Source: Candidatus Acidiferrum sp. (GTDB lineage Bacteria; Chloroflexota; Dormibacteria; CF-121). From it: a stretch of 64,000 bases of DNA. Where the stretch lies: NCBI GenBank assembly GCA_035602395.1, contig DATNMH010000068.1, forward strand, positions 77,416-141,415. The letters run 5' to 3'. The position numbers and the translations under genes are program-made. Position 1 is the stretch's first letter, and the number at the start of each line of letters is the position of its first letter. The notes beneath the pieces were generated by a model. That model worked only from the letters and a program-made list of their open reading frames with translations. It was not told where the DNA came from and searched no databases. Positions 11,782-45,164 of the stretch are shown here, one piece after another.

Positions 11782-12303
11782 TTAGTCGCCCTCGCGCGAG
11801 GTCGTCTGGACTTCCGGCTTGTCAGCCTTCTCGACGTCGGGCTTCTCAGCCTTGTCTTTTTCCGGCTGCTTGACTTCCGGCTTATCGACGTTCGGTTGGG
11901 TGGACTCAGCCTTGATTTCGGCGACCGCCGCGGTGTATTCCGCGGTCAGGTTCGTAATCGCGGCGCAGGTCGCGGTCTCGATCGCCGTCACCCTGGCAGC
12001 TAGTGCCACGGGGTTGTTTCCGTCTTCCTCGTCGGTGTTGGCCTTGAGCTCCGCGATGGCGCTGTTGGCCTCGCTGACGATTTCGCTGAGGGCTGCCGAG
12101 GTCTCAACGTTGAGCTCGGTAACTGCAGCTTTCCCCTCGCCGGTCAGGGACGACGGGTCGGTCACGGTGAATTTGGCCGCGCAGGCCGCAATCGCGGCGT
12201 CAGGCGTTGCCGTCGGGGTCGTGTCGTCGGCGAGGCTTGCCACGCTCGTCCAGAGCGTGAGTCCGCCAGCGACAAGGAGGGCGCCGAATACGTTTCGCTT
12301 CAT
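11782..12303 (-). CDS. Secreted hypothetical protein, helical Ala-rich with charged KPE/KPD C-terminal repeats
   Basis: Signal peptide MKRNVFGALLVAGGLTLWTSVASLA; tail DKPEVKQPEKDKAEKPDVEKADKPEV. Confidence 0.75.
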   Translation of the reverse strand: MKRNVFGALLVAGGLTLWTSVASLADDTTPTATPDAAIAACAAKFTVTDPSSLTGEGKAAVTELNVETSAALSEIVSEANSAIAELKANTDEEDGNNPVALAARVTAIETATCAAITNLTAEYTAAVAEIKAESTQPNVDKPEVKQPEKDKAEKPDVEKADKPEVQTTSREGD

Positions 12304-12385
12304 GCATTCTTATACGCACCTCATCGAGTGGATATTCGTAACGATGTCGCATCCAGGTCACGCCCGGGCTACGCGGCGGTGATGA

Positions 12386-12411
12386 GCGCGCTCCGGCGTG
12401 GAAAAGCGCGC
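12386..12411. repeat. Single hairpin element sharing its 12-nt loop with the 14111-14207 array
   Basis: GCGCGCT-CCGGCGTGGAAA-AGCGCGC. Confidence 0.7.
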
Positions 12412-12413
12412 GG

Positions 12414-12833
12414 TTAGCTAATGCGATGAACCCGCGGTAACCCCGGCGGCGGGAACGCGGGCAGATCGGTCGGGCCGCGGCGATCGAGGTCCTCTCGCAA
12501 GGCGGCGGTCTCGCGCACCAACCGCTCGACATCGATCGTCATACAGCTCGGCCGGTAGGCCTCCAGCTTGGCAAGTCCGTGGCCGAGCTTGGCGACGGCG
12601 CCGCGCCAGTTGCCGCGCCGCCAGTGATAGAAGCCAACTCCGACCTGCAGGATCCCCTGATACAGGTAGCGGACCTCGTCGGGCTCGTGCATCCAGATGC
12701 CCTCGAGCGTTTCGTGCTGCTCGAAGAATTCCTGCCGGTTGAACTCCTCGATGCCATGCAGCAGGGCCGCCGGCGGCGGGTCATCGCATCGGGCGGTGCG
12801 GCGGGGCGCGGTCTTCTTCGGGTGGACGCTCAC
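12414..12833 (-). CDS. DUF309 domain protein
   Basis: GIEEFNRQEFFEQHETLEGIW...YQGILQVGVGFYHWRRGN. Confidence 0.85.
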   Translation of the reverse strand: MSVHPKKTAPRRTARCDDPPPAALLHGIEEFNRQEFFEQHETLEGIWMHEPDEVRYLYQGILQVGVGFYHWRRGNWRGAVAKLGHGLAKLEAYRPSCMTIDVERLVRETAALREDLDRRGPTDLPAFPPPGLPRVHRIS

Positions 12834-12858
12834 CGGGATATCGCCCGAAGCGCACCCG

Positions 12859-14085
12859 TCACGCCGAGCTCTGGCTGTCGGTCAGCGAGACCTGGGCCTC
12901 ATCGCCGTCGGGCGAAGCCCCTGGCAATTCCAGATAGAAGGTCGTGCCCTTGCCCTCGAGGCTGTTCGCCCAGGCGCGCCCACCGTGCGCTTCGGCCACC
13001 CGGCGCAACAGATAGAGGCCGAGGCCCTGGCCACGCTCCGGTTGCTGTTCGGCCAGCGGAGCGAAGAGCTCCTCCAGCCGGTCGGCCGACATGCCGGGGC
13101 CGTCGTCCTTCACGATCAGCTGATACCGGTCGTGGCTCGCCTGCCGCAAACGAAGCTGCACGACGGTGGCGCTCCGCGCGTGCTTGAACACGTTGTGAAG
13201 CATCTCGTCGAGCGCCGCCTCCAGCAAGGTGGCGTCGCCCCACACGTCCGCCTGGGTGTCGAGCTGGAGGCGCAACTCCATGCCAACGCCGGCCATCCGC
13301 TCGCGGATGCGTCGCGCCGCCTCCTGGGCGACGGCGCCCAGCGAGACGCGGACGGTGAAGGCCAGTTCGAGCGGAAGACGAGAGAGCAGGAGCACCTGGT
13401 CCGCGATCCGCATCAGGGTCTCCGCTTGCTGCGCCAGCCGCTGGGCGACGAGCGGCATCTCGTTGACGGGGACCTCGTTGCTCCGCAGCATGTCGGCATA
13501 GCCGCGCAGGATGGCGAGCGGCTCCTTGACCTCCTCCGATGCGAGCCGCACCGCCGAGACGGGCGTCCGCGATTGGCCGTTGGTTGGCGTCGATTGCTGC
13601 AGCAGCCGGGGCGCGAGCAGTCCGGCCACTACCAGGAGCAGATCCTGGTCCTCGGGGGAATAGACCCGGGCGCCCTTGCCCAGCACCGCCAGGGTTCCCG
13701 ATAGCTCGCCTGTCTTGCCATGCCAGCTGGTGCCCAGGTAGCTCACGATGCCCAGCTGTGCCCGCATCTGCAGGCTTTTGAAGGGCTGGCGCTTGCCGGC
13801 ATCCGCAACACTGAGAACGCCACCCTCGGCCTCATCCTCGGCGTTGGCGAAGGTCGACTCCAGGGGCAGGCGCAAGCCCGACGCGATCGGAGGGCCGCTT
13901 TCCACGATGGCCGACATGATCTCGAGCGTGTCGTCATCAATCTTGCCGAGAAAGGCCGCGCGCCCATCGAGTGCCTCGACCAGGCACGACAGGGCGTGAT
14001 CGACGAGGTCGGGAAGAGGCCGATCGAGATTGGCGACCACCAGGCGGCGGACTACGCTCAGGCGAGACTGGGGGTCAGGGCTCAT
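12859..14085 (-). CDS. GAF-domain sensor histidine kinase-like protein lacking the phospho-acceptor His
   Basis: GAF (IVSYLGTSW...GTLAVL); H-box reads ASEEVKEPLAILRGY; HATPase boxes HNVFKHA, VKDDGPGM, GQGLGL, GTTFYLELP. Confidence 0.85.
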   Translation of the reverse strand: MSPDPQSRLSVVRRLVVANLDRPLPDLVDHALSCLVEALDGRAAFLGKIDDDTLEIMSAIVESGPPIASGLRLPLESTFANAEDEAEGGVLSVADAGKRQPFKSLQMRAQLGIVSYLGTSWHGKTGELSGTLAVLGKGARVYSPEDQDLLLVVAGLLAPRLLQQSTPTNGQSRTPVSAVRLASEEVKEPLAILRGYADMLRSNEVPVNEMPLVAQRLAQQAETLMRIADQVLLLSRLPLELAFTVRVSLGAVAQEAARRIRERMAGVGMELRLQLDTQADVWGDATLLEAALDEMLHNVFKHARSATVVQLRLRQASHDRYQLIVKDDGPGMSADRLEELFAPLAEQQPERGQGLGLYLLRRVAEAHGGRAWANSLEGKGTTFYLELPGASPDGDEAQVSLTDSQSSA

Positions 14086-14110
14086 GAAGGGGCGCCCACG
14101 GTTATAACAG

Positions 14111-14207
14111 TAAGCGGCCCCGGTGTGGAAAGGCCGCGTGTCATAAGCGGCCCCGGCGTGGAAAGGCCGCGTGTCATAAGCGGCCCCGGTGTGGAAAGGC
14201 CGCGTGT
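14111..14207. repeat. 33-bp tandem repeat x3, each unit a hairpin
   Basis: TAAGCGGCCCCGG(T/C)GTGGAAAGGCCGCGTGTCA at 14111, 14144, 14177 (third lacks final CA); internal GCGGCC/GGCCGC inverted repeat; no spacers. Confidence 0.95.
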
Positions 14208-14221
14208 AAAGTTCTTAGAAT

Positions 14222-15109
14222 TTGCCAGCATTGGCTGAGGTATCCAACGGGCGCGCGAACCTGCACCTGCACACCGTCTTCAGCGACGGTGAACTCGAGC
14301 CGGCTGAGGTCGTGCAGGCCCACGCCGCCGCCGGCTTTGACGCCATCGCGTTGACCGACCATGACACGCTGGCGGGGATCGACGCGCTGGGCGGCCTCGA
14401 GGGACGCTCGCTGCGGATGGTTGCCGGCGTCGAATTGTCGATCGAGGATGAGCCAGGTCGCGGGCTGGTCGACGTGCATCTGCTCGGCTACGGCTTTGCG
14501 GTCGGTGATCGGCGGTTGCGACGGCGGCTCCACGAAGCCAGCGAGGCGCGCGAGGCGCAGAAGGTCGAGACCGTTCGGCGGCTGGCGGCGGCGGGTTTCA
14601 AGGTGGCGTGGGGTGACGTGCGAGCGCGGGCGCGCGGCAACGTGGGTAAGCCGCATATCGTGGCCGCCATCGAGGCGGCGCAGCCGGGTGTCGTGCGCGA
14701 GGAACTCTACGCCGCGATGGGCCCCGGTGGTGCGGCGCACGTGCCCCGGACAAAAGAGATGTCGCTGGACGAAGGGGTCGACTTGATTGGGGGGGCCGGC
14801 GGCGTGACCGTGCTGGCACACCCCGGCGTCTACCGCCATGTGTCCGACCTGGAGGTGCTGTTTCGAACCTGCGCCGTGGCCGGCGTCCTCGGACTCGAGG
14901 TGACCTATCCCCAGGCACCCGATGATCCCTATGGGCCGAAGAGTGCGGCGTTGATCGAGCGCTTCGTCAAGGTGGCGGCATCCTATGGATGGGTCGCGAC
15001 CGGCGGTGACGATTTCCACGGGCCACAGGTGACGCCACTGATCCGCCTGGCCGGTTGGACGGCGACGCCGGCGACCAGCGTCGACGAGTTACTCGCTCGC
15101 CGCAGCTAG
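14222..15109 (+). CDS. PHP domain phosphoesterase (TrpH/YciV-like)
   Basis: NLHLHTVFSDG, ALTDHDT, GVELS, VHLLGY, LAHPG, GGDDFHG. Confidence 0.9.
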   Translation: MPALAEVSNGRANLHLHTVFSDGELEPAEVVQAHAAAGFDAIALTDHDTLAGIDALGGLEGRSLRMVAGVELSIEDEPGRGLVDVHLLGYGFAVGDRRLRRRLHEASEAREAQKVETVRRLAAAGFKVAWGDVRARARGNVGKPHIVAAIEAAQPGVVREELYAAMGPGGAAHVPRTKEMSLDEGVDLIGGAGGVTVLAHPGVYRHVSDLEVLFRTCAVAGVLGLEVTYPQAPDDPYGPKSAALIERFVKVAASYGWVATGGDDFHGPQVTPLIRLAGWTATPATSVDELLARRS

Positions 15110-28762: not shown

Positions 28763-30250
28763 ATGCTGTCAGCCTTCCATCGTCCGCTCGCGGCCCTGCT
28801 GGCCGCTACCGGCCTGGCGTTGGCCGGTCTGCCAAGCATTCCGGCCCTGGCCGCATCCAACCAAGCGCACCTCGATCGCGAGGTGCTCAAGGCCATGCAG
28901 GCCGGGCGATCGATCAATGTCATCGTGGTCGCGCGCGGCGATCTGAACGTGCTGGAAGCCGATCTGCGGCGGACTGGTCTGAAACACACGGAGCGTGTCC
29001 CGATCGCTCATGGGGTCGCCGTCCAGCTGACGGCGGCGCTCATCGATCACTTCCGCGCGGACGCGAACGTCGCCCGGCTCATCTACGACGCCCCGGTTAG
29101 GCTGACTGACACCCCCTTCGACCCAACCGCATTGGCGACGGTGTACCCGACGGTCGTTGACGCTCTCCCGGTCTGGAGCAACCCGCTGGCGCCGCTCACC
29201 GGACAAGGGATCGGGATCGCCGTGATCGACAGCGGGATTGCGTCGCACCCTGACCTGGGCAATCGCCTGATCGTCAGCCAGAACTTCAATCCGAACGTCA
29301 ATGGCAACGACGACGCCTATGGCCACGGCACCGCGGTCGCCGGCATCATCGCGGGCGACGGCACCGCAGGCCTCGGACAGTACGTCGGTGTAGCGCCGCA
29401 GGCGAACCTCATCAGTCTGCGGGTCAATGACGGCACCGGCGGCGCCCCCACCTCGGCGATTATGAACGCCATTCTGTGGGCGGTCATCAACCGGAATACC
29501 TACAACATTCGCGTGATCAACCTGTCGTTGCAGGCCTCCGTGCAGGAGTCATACCGCACCAGCCCGATCGACGCGGCCGTCGAGTATGCCTGGCTGAAAG
29601 GGGTCGTGGTGGTCGTTGCCGCCGGCAACAGTGGCCCAAACAGCGCCCTCTATGCGCCGGCGAATGACCCATACGTGATCACGGTGGGCGCGACCGACGA
29701 TCAGGGCACGGTCGCGAGCACCGACGATACGCTGGCCGGTTTTTCGAGCTACGGTGTGACCCAGGACGGCTTTACCAAGCCCGACTTTGTCGCGCCCGGC
29801 AAGCGCATCATCACCACGCTCGCCCCCAACAGCAATTTCGCGCTGAACTACCCGAGCTTCATGGTCGGGTCGCAGTACATCAAACTCAGCGGCACCTCGG
29901 TGGCGGCCCCGATCGTCAGCGGCGCGGTGGCGCTCTATATCGAGAGCAATCCGACGGTGCGCCCGGGGCAGCTGAAAGGCGTGCTGCTCGCGACCGCGAA
30001 CCGCCTGGGGTTCCCCGGAAGCGGCGCCGGATATCCGGACGCCCTGCATGCGATCGCGTATGTCGGCCTGCTCGGGAATGCGGATCACGGCCTCGATCCA
30101 AACGACTACCTGAAGGTCCTCTACATGGCGGCGCACAGCCTGACGGTGCTGCCAGTCGTCTCCTGGGACAGCGTCTCGTGGGACAGCGTCTCCTGGGACA
30201 GCGTGTCGTGGGACAGCGTCTCCTGGGACGCCGTGAGCTGGAGCAACTAG
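28763..30250 (+). CDS. Secreted subtilisin-like S8 serine peptidase with Trp-rich pentapeptide C-terminal tail
   Basis: Signal peptide; triad IAVIDSG, HGTAVAG, GTSVAAP; oxyanion AAGNSG; ends VSWDSVSWDSVSWDSVSWDSVSWDAVSWSN. Confidence 0.93.
   Translation: MLSAFHRPLAALLAATGLALAGLPSIPALAASNQAHLDREVLKAMQAGRSINVIVVARGDLNVLEADLRRTGLKHTERVPIAHGVAVQLTAALIDHFRADANVARLIYDAPVRLTDTPFDPTALATVYPTVVDALPVWSNPLAPLTGQGIGIAVIDSGIASHPDLGNRLIVSQNFNPNVNGNDDAYGHGTAVAGIIAGDGTAGLGQYVGVAPQANLISLRVNDGTGGAPTSAIMNAILWAVINRNTYNIRVINLSLQASVQESYRTSPIDAAVEYAWLKGVVVVVAAGNSGPNSALYAPANDPYVITVGATDDQGTVASTDDTLAGFSSYGVTQDGFTKPDFVAPGKRIITTLAPNSNFALNYPSFMVGSQYIKLSGTSVAAPIVSGAVALYIESNPTVRPGQLKGVLLATANRLGFPGSGAGYPDALHAIAYVGLLGNADHGLDPNDYLKVLYMAAHSLTVLPVVSWDSVSWDSVSWDSVSWDSVSWDAVSWSN
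30158..30247 (+). repeat. 15-bp coding tandem repeat x6 encoding VSWDS
   Basis: GTCTCCTGGGACAGC units with mostly synonymous variation. Confidence 0.95.
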
Positions 30251-32494: not shown

Positions 32495-32530
32495 GGAGCA
32501 ACTATAAACGGCAGACGCTATGCTGCTGAC

Positions 32531-38582: not shown

Positions 38583-39611
38583 GTGGGCTCGTTCGAGAAG
38601 GGGGACCGGGGTGCGCGCATCCTCAAAATCCAGACGCTCCTTCAGGGCAATCCGCGCGGGTTGACGACCGGCGAGATCGCCCGCCGAACGGCCGTCAACC
38701 CTCGCACCACCTACCGCGACATCAAGGCGCTGGAGGCCATGAACGTCCCGGTCTACGAGGAGGCGGGACGGATCGCCATCGACCCGAACTACTTCATCGC
38801 GCCGGTCAAGTTCACGCTGCGCGAGGCGATGGCGCTGCTGATGGGCGTTCGTCTCATGTCCCGGCACAGCGACGAGGCAGACCCTGACGTGGCCGACGCC
38901 TTCACGAAGTTGGCGGCGGTGCTCCCGGCGCCGGTCGCCGAGTACGTGCACGCCACCGTCCGGCAGATGGCGGCTCGGCCGCCCAACCCGGTCTATTCGA
39001 GGGTGCTCCAGACCGTCGCCCTCGGGTGGGCTGGTCGCAAGGTGGTGCGCATCTGGTACCCAAGCGCGGATCACGCCGTCAAGCCTCGGCTGATCGAGCC
39101 CTACTTTCTCGAGCCATCGCTGATTGGACACGGGAGCTACGTCGTCGCGCGCGATCGCGGGCTGGGGGAGATGCGGACCTTCAAGCTGGAGCGCATCACC
39201 CGCGCAGAGCCGATGACCGAGACCTACTCGATCCCGGCTGACTTCGACATCAATAGCTACCTCTCGGGGGCCTGGGGCATCTACCACTCCGGCGAGCCGG
39301 TCGAGGTCAGGATGCGGTTTTTCCCGCCCGCGGCCGCGCGGGTCAAGGAATCAACCTGGCACCCATCGCAGAAACTCAGCGATGGCCCCAAAGGATCGAT
39401 CAACATGACGGTGACCGTGGCGGGGACGATCGAGATCACGCCCTGGATCCTGGGTTGGGGCGATGCGGTCGAGGTCATCGCTCCGAAAGACTTACGCAAG
39501 AAGATCGCCGACGCCGGCGCGAAAATGTCGACTCGCAACGCCGTGGATGTTCCCTCCCCCTCTGGGGGAGGGCAGGGTGGGGGCCGCAAAGCTCGAGGAG
39601 GATCGCTATGA
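38583..39611 (+). CDS. WYL-domain transcriptional regulator (HTH-WYL-WCX; PafC/DriD-like)
   Basis: HTH LTTGEIARRTAVNPRTTYRDIKAL; RLIEPY...RTFKLERI; WILGWGDAVEVIAP. Confidence 0.92.
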   Translation: MGSFEKGDRGARILKIQTLLQGNPRGLTTGEIARRTAVNPRTTYRDIKALEAMNVPVYEEAGRIAIDPNYFIAPVKFTLREAMALLMGVRLMSRHSDEADPDVADAFTKLAAVLPAPVAEYVHATVRQMAARPPNPVYSRVLQTVALGWAGRKVVRIWYPSADHAVKPRLIEPYFLEPSLIGHGSYVVARDRGLGEMRTFKLERITRAEPMTETYSIPADFDINSYLSGAWGIYHSGEPVEVRMRFFPPAAARVKESTWHPSQKLSDGPKGSINMTVTVAGTIEITPWILGWGDAVEVIAPKDLRKKIADAGAKMSTRNAVDVPSPSGGGQGGGRKARGGSL

Positions 39612-44693: not shown

Positions 44694-45164
44694 TTAGCGG
44701 TTGCCGCCTCCCGGCCAGGTCTGCTCCGGCGGGCGCTCACCGATCTTGATCCGCTCCGAGCTGCCGCCCGACGTATCGGACTCGCCGCCCGGATCGCTGC
44801 CAAAGCCGCCGTACGAGGGCAGGATCGGCGGCTCCGCCGGCCGCGCCACGGGACGAGACGCGCCGCTAAACGGGCTGGCGGCGGGCTTCGGGGCGCTCGG
44901 TGGCGCTACTTTCGGGGCTGCGACCGGCTTGGCCGCGGCCCTGGCGGCGGCCTTCGGGGCGGCCTTCGCGGCCGTTCTTTTCTTCGCGGCCGGGCGCTTG
45001 GCCGCCGCCTTCTTGGCGGCGGGGCGCTTGGCGGTCGACTTCTTCGCGGTGGATCGCTTGGCCGTCGACTTCTTGGCGGCGGAGCGCTTCGCCGTCGACT
45101 TCTTCTTGGCGGTCGACCGCTTCGGCGTCGACTTCTTGGCTTTTGATTTCTTCTTCGCTGGCAT
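44694..45164 (-). CDS. Histone H1-like Lys/Ala-rich basic protein
   Basis: Repeated K(K/R)STAK/RPAAKK pentapeptides, then PA-rich and acidic tail; GGGAGGAG RBS; own terminator. Confidence 0.8.
   Translation of the reverse strand: MPAKKKSKAKKSTPKRSTAKKKSTAKRSAAKKSTAKRSTAKKSTAKRPAAKKAAAKRPAAKKRTAAKAAPKAAARAAAKPVAAPKVAPPSAPKPAASPFSGASRPVARPAEPPILPSYGGFGSDPGGESDTSGGSSERIKIGERPPEQTWPGGGNR

Follow-up and report, generated by a model that had tools for sequence, protein, structure and literature searches.

Hairpins beside a DUF309/kinase gene pair belong to a dispersed, probably REP-like palindromic DNA repeat of one genus of Dormibacterota

The stretch of DNA analysed here (the window; 64,000 nt, positions 77416-141415 of contig DATNMH010000068.1, or C68) carries a DUF309 gene and a kinase-like gene with short hairpins on both sides. 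This raises the question whether the hairpins belong to the gene pair, act as signals in DNA or RNA, or form an element of their own. The window comes from a metagenome-assembled genome (MAG) of 2.13 Mb in 71 contigs, 86% complete, here called G000; all genomes compared are fragmented MAGs, and genomes, contigs and loci are referred to by G, C and L numbers. We consider it probable that the hairpins represent a short palindromic DNA repeat (~35 nt), non-coding and dispersed, which resembles repetitive extragenic palindromic (REP) sequences, is gained and lost at orthologous sites and is copied or moved as a folded single strand.

Direct reading of the sequence gives three assembled 33-bp units, head-to-tail at 14111-14207, each of the form GCGGCC-CCGGYGTGGAAA-GGCCGC, and Tandem Repeats Finder reports the same interval with a period of 33, 2.9 copies, 96% matches and a score of 187. 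A further copy at 12386-12411 shares the loop CCGGYGTGGAAA with the three array hairpins and has a perfect stem of another sequence. The initial annotation had described these four copies, and had placed them just 3' of the DUF309 stop codon and just 5' of the kinase start; both descriptions are confirmed by the sequence, the repeat search and the coordinates. The array sits in the divergent promoter spacer, 25 nt from the kinase ATG (14083-14085), and the single copy reaches as far as the DUF309 stop codon (Table 1). In the window the loop motif is found four times exactly and five times with at most one mismatch, against 0.91 expected, and none of 100 shuffles reaches five. A chance match or an assembly artefact is hardly credible in view of this count and of the hundreds of copies present in independent assemblies from several studies. 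Furthermore, a 97-bp array is expected to be shorter than a typical short read, and an artefact is unlikely since arrays of 2-5 units occur at other loci and in independent MAGs.

Table 1. Features of the window in and around the hairpin sites and their positions in window coordinates
Feature	Position	Strand	Remarks
Hairpin array as a whole	14109..14209	+	spacer between divergent kinase (-) and PHP (+) genes; 6-bp arms; junctions GTGTCA^TAA
Array unit 1	14114-14119; 14120-14131; 14132-14137		arm GCGGCC; loop CCGGTGTGGAAA; arm GGCCGC
Array unit 2	14147-14152; 14153-14164; 14165-14170		arm; loop CCGGCGTGGAAA; arm
Array unit 3	14180-14185; 14186-14197; 14198-14203		arm; loop; arm
Single unit	12382..12416	+	covariance-model match, 43 bits, E 1.7e-6
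Single unit, parts	12382-12385; 12386-12392; 12393-12404; 12405-12411; 12412-12416		ATGA; GCGCGCT; loop CCGGCGTGGAAA; AGCGCGC; GGTTA
Insertion in ancestral DUF309 3' coding end	12385..12423		~39 nt; ends ambiguous by ATG/TGATG redundancy at the junctions
Present DUF309 stop TAA	12414..12416	-	from the element's 3' tail GGTTA; 2 nt off the hairpin
Relic ancestral DUF309 stop TAG	12369..12371	-	now 3' of the insertion; aligns with the stop of all empty-site species
DUF309 gene, 139 aa	12414..12833	-	Pfam PF03745, E 4.7e-23; last few residues replaced by the insertion
GAF-HisKA-HATPase_c (kinase) gene, 408 aa	12859..14085	-	neighbour, not part of the element
PHP-domain gene	14222..15109	+	divergent from the kinase gene; neighbour, not part of the element
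Secreted-looking gene, 173 aa	11782-12303	-	
Empty site in G000	32515..32516		GGCAGA^CGCTATG; orthologous to L066/L090

The hairpins belong to a repeat family. Pattern and covariance-model searches recovered ~31 copies in G000, and G000 and its relatives together gave 204 distinct copies at 153 loci, many of which are orthologues, so that these counts are not independent events. The unit of ~35 nt reads A(-11)TNA(-8)-GCSNGCY-CCGGYGTGGAAA-RGCNSGC-G(+8)TGW. Over the 204 copies the informative span runs from -11 to ~+12 around the loop, outside which sequence information drops to background. The 12-nt loop is nearly invariant and is the most conserved part of the element; A(-8) stands opposite G(+8), as a mismatch at the foot of the stem, in 174 of the copies. 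The stem itself exists in several well-populated variants (GCGCGCC, GCGAGCC, (A)GCGGCC, GCCGCCC, GCCGCCT, GCCCGCT and GCGCGCT).

In the alignment of 31 copies, 84.2% of the stem cells pair, against 68.5% in shuffles, and double-change cells number 35 against 16.1; neither value was attained in any of 500 shuffles, and controls with the stem alignment slid out of register gave 30-40% pairing. RNAalifold independently predicts the same helix, together with two inner C-G pairs that never vary (loop positions 1-2 with 8-9). No Watson-Crick covariation was found at -9/+9 to -12/+12, and the helix is therefore not extended beyond 7 bp. The change of stem under a constant loop had been read in the initial annotation as selection on structure. 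Covariation is indeed seen throughout the family and selection is a reasonable reading of these alignments, though conversion from arm to arm could mimic it.

Of 24 other genomes of the genus, 23 contain matches to the covariance model (1-59 copies per genome). Outside the genus, 16 genomes representing 13 genera of the same class gave no match. A scan of 185,579 species genomes with the exact pattern AGCGNGCCCCGGYGTGGAAAGGCGNGCG (26 specified bases), which favoured GCGNGCC stems, returned 78 stretches, all of this Dormibacterota lineage; they lie in soil MAGs labelled Dormibacterota, or Chloroflexi in older records, save for three mislabelled contigs. The latter carry the labels Binatus, Stellaceae or Actinomycetes and are syntenic with G000 contigs at 75-82% identity, and are therefore regarded as mislabelled or mis-binned. 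Loci L099, L103, L121, L132, L148, L149 and L169 are the ones labelled Candidatus Binatus, Stellaceae and uncultured Actinomycetes (contigs DATNNA01..., DASZHJ010000380.1 and CAZRMD010000007.1), synteny having been checked for L099, L103, L132 and L149. Judged from these searches, the element is apparently restricted to one genus of Dormibacterota. Viral carriers were considered and rejected: three matches in IMG/VR cover only an 18-mer of the loop and, as arms and tails are missing, are put down to chance. A literature search found no paper linking Dormibacterota with repeats. The proposal of an undescribed REP-like element has thus held up, in that further copies are found genome-wide, mostly intergenic, at sites present or absent between relatives.

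Do the hairpins delimit the gene pair that they bracket? In a comparison of the kinase locus across 24 other genomes of the genus, the DUF309/kinase pair is syntenic in these 24, out of 30 genomes of the genus, and 19 of the 24 are without a hairpin on either side. The kinase-like GAF-HisKA-HATPase_c protein is likewise conserved in all 24, at 65-91% identity. At the position of the H-box, which in histidine kinases usually reads SHELRTPL, it reads SEEVKEPL, and the phospho-acceptor histidine appears to be replaced by glutamate, in agreement with its earlier description as a pseudo-kinase.

The DUF309 site is filled, at the same point inside the reading frame, in G000, G001 and G002 (one copy each) and in G012 (three copies). 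In a 13-species alignment it is empty (GGTGATG^CGATG) in nine species, namely the close relative G003 and eight more distant ones, all of which read ...CATCGCA^TCA(C/T)C...stop at the end of DUF309; four of the nine also appear as element-free rows in the orthologue-identity comparison. The C-terminus, ancestrally ...VHRITSPM, now reads ...VHRIS. A perfect TGATG direct repeat stands on both sides of the G012 insertion, the second repeat being one base off in G000 and G001. For this site, and for this site only, the alignment firmly establishes the polarity as insertion and not deletion.

The ends of the kinase-PHP spacer are also conserved, with GGTTATAACA on the kinase side and ATACCACATAAAATGGGCGACCATTGG or TAGAATTTGCCAGCATTGG on the PHP side. 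Its middle holds three, two and one copies in + orientation in G000, G012 and G001, respectively, and one copy each in the opposite orientation (ACACGCGGCCTTTCCACACCGGGGCCGCTTAT) in G003 and G002. Three species have a minimal spacer with no insert, and in most others the place is taken by another hairpin repeat, present once or twice, of the form CCCTCCCCC-loop-GGGGGAGGG and then (T/C)(C/A)GGGTGGGGGC; in total, 19 other species have the spacer without copies of the element. The sole sigma-70-like match in 12250-14300 is found in this spacer, upstream of the PHP gene, at 14192-14221 (+). It is a consensus match only, with the loop of the last array unit (TGGAAA) as -35 hexamer and TAGAAT 18 nt downstream.

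These comparisons bear on the suggestion, made in the initial annotation, of recombination sites of a small cassette. Sites resembling attC that delimit a mobile DUF309/kinase cassette would fit the same-orientation copies on both sides of the pair in G000, G001 and G012, but the idea has next to no chance of being right. It is refuted by the synteny of the pair with or without hairpins; moreover the upstream copy is inverted in G003 and G002, the downstream copy is missing from G003 and, where present, falls within the DUF309 frame, and the stems of the two sites differ. In addition, the tails look, by eye, unlike the GTTRRRY of attC sites. The two sites are occupied independently. They are two hot spots whose bracketing of the gene pair is coincidental, because the pair is conserved irrespective of hairpins, and are best read as recent, independent insertions beside an old gene pair.

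Gains and losses were also found elsewhere. For 60 regions of the four closest relatives the flanks were compared with G000 by BLAST, which gave shared, empty and remnant sites. At L051, in element + orientation, the filled site reads GGGCAG, the insert ATCAGCGAGCC...GCGTGACG and then GGTGGGGG, against GGGCAG^GGTGGGGG in the empty one. L053 and L064 are arranged like L051, each of the three inserts being 36 nt long, without duplication, at GGGCAG^GGTGGGGGC. At L096 an insert of 35 nt separates two convergent stop codons whose distance in G000 is 4 nt. In the opposite direction, the empty G000 site at 32515/32516 is occupied in G001 and G002 by one full copy (ATGTAGCCGCCT...AGGCGGCGGTA) and a truncated second one. 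Remnants that have lost the loop and kept the tails and stem bases were found at C22:20115, at C37:23700 and in an array of G007 (L001). Loss of the apex is the outcome expected if a palindrome is extruded and then cut or skipped in vivo. A position near C57:5340 (~5340) in G000 is also listed among the remnants, in which the apex or one half of the element is deleted and the tails are left.

A second repeat family, with ~90 copies genome-wide (e.g. window 39551-39585, C68:29524 and C6:15124), is involved in the choice of target. Its units read (T)TTCCCTCCCCC, then TCT or GCTCGC/GCTTGC, then GGGGGAGGG followed by CAGGGTGGGGGC, so that the stem is constant and the loop variable; to judge from this sequence, the C-rich arm could pair with the G-rich tail in place of the 3' arm. 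The hairpin repeat that most other species of the genus have between the kinase and PHP genes belongs to this family, and its GGGCAG^GG is the preferred target of the ATCAGCGAGCC subfamily of the element. Nine of the 17 copies listed as adjoining a GGGGAGGG motif (some of them orthologues) have a GGGCAG/GGGCGG^ATCAGCGAGCC junction with the second family, and these junctions at GGGCAG^GG inside the second repeat point to a target preference.

Single units make up 120 of the 153 loci obtained by clustering the 204 copies, and 84 of the 114 loci that could be classified by their flanking genes. Each of the 69 multi-copy clusters keeps to one orientation, its units being head-to-tail with periods of 30-39 nt. 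In 40 pairs of adjacent units the arms are identical and in 11 they differ, and the differing neighbours suggest that some arrays hold independently derived copies (e.g. GCCCGCC beside GCGCGCC in G007). At L062 and L097 the array units take in a few bases of the flank, and direct repeats at other insertions measure 6 nt (GCATGA, C71), 12 nt (L067) and ~20 nt (L038). The variable direct repeats and the flank-containing units suggest that local tandem duplication accounts for at least part of the growth of arrays.

Is the element read as DNA or as RNA? The 114 loci were classified with our own gene calls, based on GC content at third codon positions (GC3), in which stops are exact and starts are not. 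The element lies in sense orientation to its flanking genes at 39 loci and antisense at 38, between divergent genes at 25 and between convergent genes at 12. Since a strong bias in orientation would be expected of a terminator, an attenuator, a small RNA or an RNA-protein site, this distribution argues against a strand-specific RNA, and it disfavours the strand-specific RNA or protein-binding form of the single-stranded DNA or RNA protein-binding hairpin that had been offered earlier. A strand-specific functional RNA, be it a small RNA, an array serving as protein sponge through GGA loops, a terminator or an attenuator, is in our view very unlikely. The units do fold as RNA at -13 to -15 kcal/mol, the loop contains GGA, tandem G.A pairs are typical of structured RNA, and some reverse-strand copies are followed by T-rich tails, one of them giving a match to the terminator consensus. 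Against this, the same kinase-PHP spacer carries opposite orientations in sister species, and the z-scores of single units are modest (-0.7 to -2.9). Fold energies are alike for both strands and both chemistries. Rfam gave nothing at gathering score in the whole window, and nothing over the hairpins (12300-14300) at E up to 10. An intrinsic terminator was rejected on the random orientation and on the consensus match, as one matching unit is no more than is found in shuffles.

One of the two strands nevertheless seems to be preferred for folding. In the GCGAGCC/GGCGAGC subfamily (42 distinct copies) the strand with the CCGGYGTGGAAA loop has tandem 5'-GA-3'/3'-AG-5' mismatches, a known stable motif, where the other strand has tandem pyrimidine mismatches (TC/CT). 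The A.G at the foot of the stem is likewise purine-purine on the CCGGYGTGGAAA strand only. This subfamily is unchanged at the C21 site in G000 and at the loci of seven relatives, with flanks 77-90% identical. Random orientation combined with one preferred folding strand would fit best with a hairpin in single-stranded DNA. For a comparison with the replication strand the GC skew proved too weak to be of use (sd 0.014); the G-rich strand carries 11 of 26 copies.

Some copies appear to have been kept for long. In 32 orthologous pairs of copies the stem-loop core is 96% identical, compared with 81% for the tails and 84% for the mostly coding flanks. The stem subfamily that occupies the C37:27857 site is not the same in all species, which suggests replacement or conversion. 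The C71:38782 copy (38766-38809), at the junction of DUF58 and BatA/VWA genes, is shared, as 1-3 units, by G000 and about nine distinct loci of relatives (some of the loci compared being duplicates), among them L003, L005, L008-L010 and L042, with flanks 76-87% identical. Here the 35-nt unit forms a 12-codon mini-ORF (open reading frame; MSAPRCGKARVA/S) with ATGA stop/start overlaps on both sides. At this one locus, such mini-ORFs would preserve translational coupling. The copies are therefore not simply decaying junk: either a function for the host or continual homogenisation and re-insertion keeps them intact.

The element also reaches into genes. Among 39 upstream sense genes ending at most 40 nt away, 18 take their stop from T(-10)N(-9)A(-8) of the 5' tail, and 17 of 47 genes converging on the 3' tail take it from the reverse complement of that tail (TCA or TTA). 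By these gene calls, the element often lies in or at gene ends and supplies the stop codon, as it does for DUF309.

A role for the host is the most serious competitor to mobility, and the two overlap. The loop could be a structural or protein-binding site on extruded or single-stranded DNA that the host maintains (e.g. for a nucleoid protein, a topoisomerase or a replication factor), or the hairpins could cap mRNA ends independently of orientation, spread being secondary. The high identity of the orthologous cores relative to their flanks, the long occupation of the C71 and C21 sites, the coupling at C71 and the nearly invariant loop would all agree with such a role. We nevertheless regard it as rather unlikely, since copy number within the single genus runs from 0 to 59 per species, the majority of sites are shared only by close relatives, and no association with any gene class was found; concerted evolution or re-insertion could also explain the conservation, given that stem subfamilies can differ at one orthologous site.

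We thus return to a mobile, REP-like DNA repeat. The element would be copied or moved as a folded single DNA strand carrying CCGGYGTGGAAA, and a putative enzyme would read the shape of the hairpin, its apical loop and its short tails. Such an enzyme would explain why loop and tails are constant, and why the stem can take any sequence that pairs. Most growth of arrays would come from local tandem duplication, with some units added when a new copy lands beside a resident one.

Several observations weigh against this reading, the first being that no mobilising enzyme was found. The search for RAYT (REP-associated tyrosine transposase) or TnpA-Y1 genes envisaged in the initial annotation came out negative: Y1_Tnp (PF01797; RAYT, IS200/IS605) was sought in six frames and is present in 0 of 30 genomes of the genus, the control search being positive in 6 of 14 known reference genomes. 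Among the same 30 genomes, Y2_Tnp (IS91-type) was found only in G005, which has 0 copies, and in G010, and is unrelated to copy number. The genes adjoining copies are ordinary housekeeping genes, and no RAYT-like gene flanked by copies was found. Those beside or between copies code for DedA, MarR, rhodanese, Ku, DUF58, BatA/VWA, an ABC transporter, an OmpR-type regulator and RsfS, to which YCII, BTAD, DUF1800, XdhC and an LLM-class (luciferase-like) oxidoreductase, read from sequence, can be added. Second, the junctions are inconsistent, with some inserts lacking a duplication and others having direct repeats of 5, 6, 12 or ~20 nt; such heterogeneity would not be expected of a single transposase mechanism, and a fixed target-site duplication was rejected for the same reason. 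Furthermore, the high conservation of old orthologous copies could mean host function and not selfish spread, and arm-to-arm conversion within a DNA palindrome can yield covariation without selection.

A more specific version can be put forward only tentatively, as a possibility more doubtful than the general one. It holds that transposition or copying through single-stranded DNA is RAYT-independent, that an enzyme of a class not yet tied to mobile DNA reads the 7-bp hairpin on one strand by its 12-nt loop and A.G foot, excises or copies the 35-nt unit and inserts it at favoured sites, such as GGGCAG^GG inside the second repeat, and that the host tolerates or exploits the stop codons in both tails.

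How does the element compare with known systems? REPs carry terminal GTAG or CGTC, are linked to RAYT transposases and have loops of mostly 2-5 nt; their clusters are head-to-head or tail-to-tail dimers, head-to-tail ones being negligible (Di Nocera et al. 2013, PMC3733652). The element resembles REPs and bacterial interspersed mosaic elements (BIMEs) as a GC-rich stem-loop of 20-40 bp with tens to hundreds of mostly extragenic copies and short conserved tails at the foot of the stem. It is also lineage-restricted, with stem/loop subtypes, compensatory stem changes and a copy number that varies among relatives. It differs from REPs in its tails, which over the 204 copies are ATNA (5') and GTGW (3') without GTAG or CGTC, in the absence of Y1_Tnp from the 30 genomes, in having head-to-tail arrays only and in its conserved 12-nt loop. 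The inverted doublets of REPINs (REP doublets forming hairpins) were not found among the 153 loci, most of which are single units. Nor is it a usual miniature inverted-repeat transposable element (MITE), because its arms vary with compensation and its duplications are not fixed (0, 5, 6, 12 or ~20 nt).

An element this small plausibly moves only as single-stranded DNA, and its behaviour seems closest to that of single-strand 'peel and paste' elements, though the defining enzyme is missing. IS608 and ISDra2 reportedly transpose in this way, as members of IS200/IS605. Shared with these are the one strand that appears to fold and the conserved nucleotides flanking the hairpin foot. The preferred target GGGCAG^GG and several insertions without target duplication may also recall them: three clean inserts have the left flank GGGCAG in common, other sites having other flanks and flanking repeats. 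The differences are that no Y1 gene is present, that there is one hairpin in place of two different end hairpins, that some direct repeats are of variable length, and that the left flank is not constant.

Mycobacterial interspersed repetitive units (MIRUs) are 40-100 bp long and are not hairpins with a conserved loop. They are alike in being short head-to-tail units of variable number in operon spacers, and in the ATGA mini-ORF overlaps seen at DUF58-BatA, although that arrangement occurs here at one locus only. A clustered regularly interspaced short palindromic repeats (CRISPR) array differs in that the present units abut directly, with a period of 30-39 nt for a 35-nt unit.

To our knowledge, small palindromic repeats are mechanistically understood only where a RAYT or an IS200/IS605 transposase is present. 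The present family behaves as mobile elements do, with sites cleanly gained or lost between close relatives, a favoured target, copies in both orientations and arrays, without a RAYT in 30 genomes. It therefore lends itself well to the search for a new mechanism that moves or maintains tiny DNA hairpins; its conserved part is the loop and not the arms. For the annotation of Dormibacterota MAGs it matters that copies within the 3' ends of genes replace C-termini and supply stops, as in DUF309. Moreover, the element and the ~90-copy second family could plausibly add to assembly breaks and to spurious ORF calls. An ORF of 172 aa at 13720-14238 (+), which crosses the array and yields a repeated GPGVERPRVIS peptide, is antisense to the kinase gene and almost certainly not a real gene. 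Tandem Repeats Finder lists two more entries in the window, at 30157-30229 (15/30-bp units, score 139) and at 44980-45140 (30/60-bp units, score 197).

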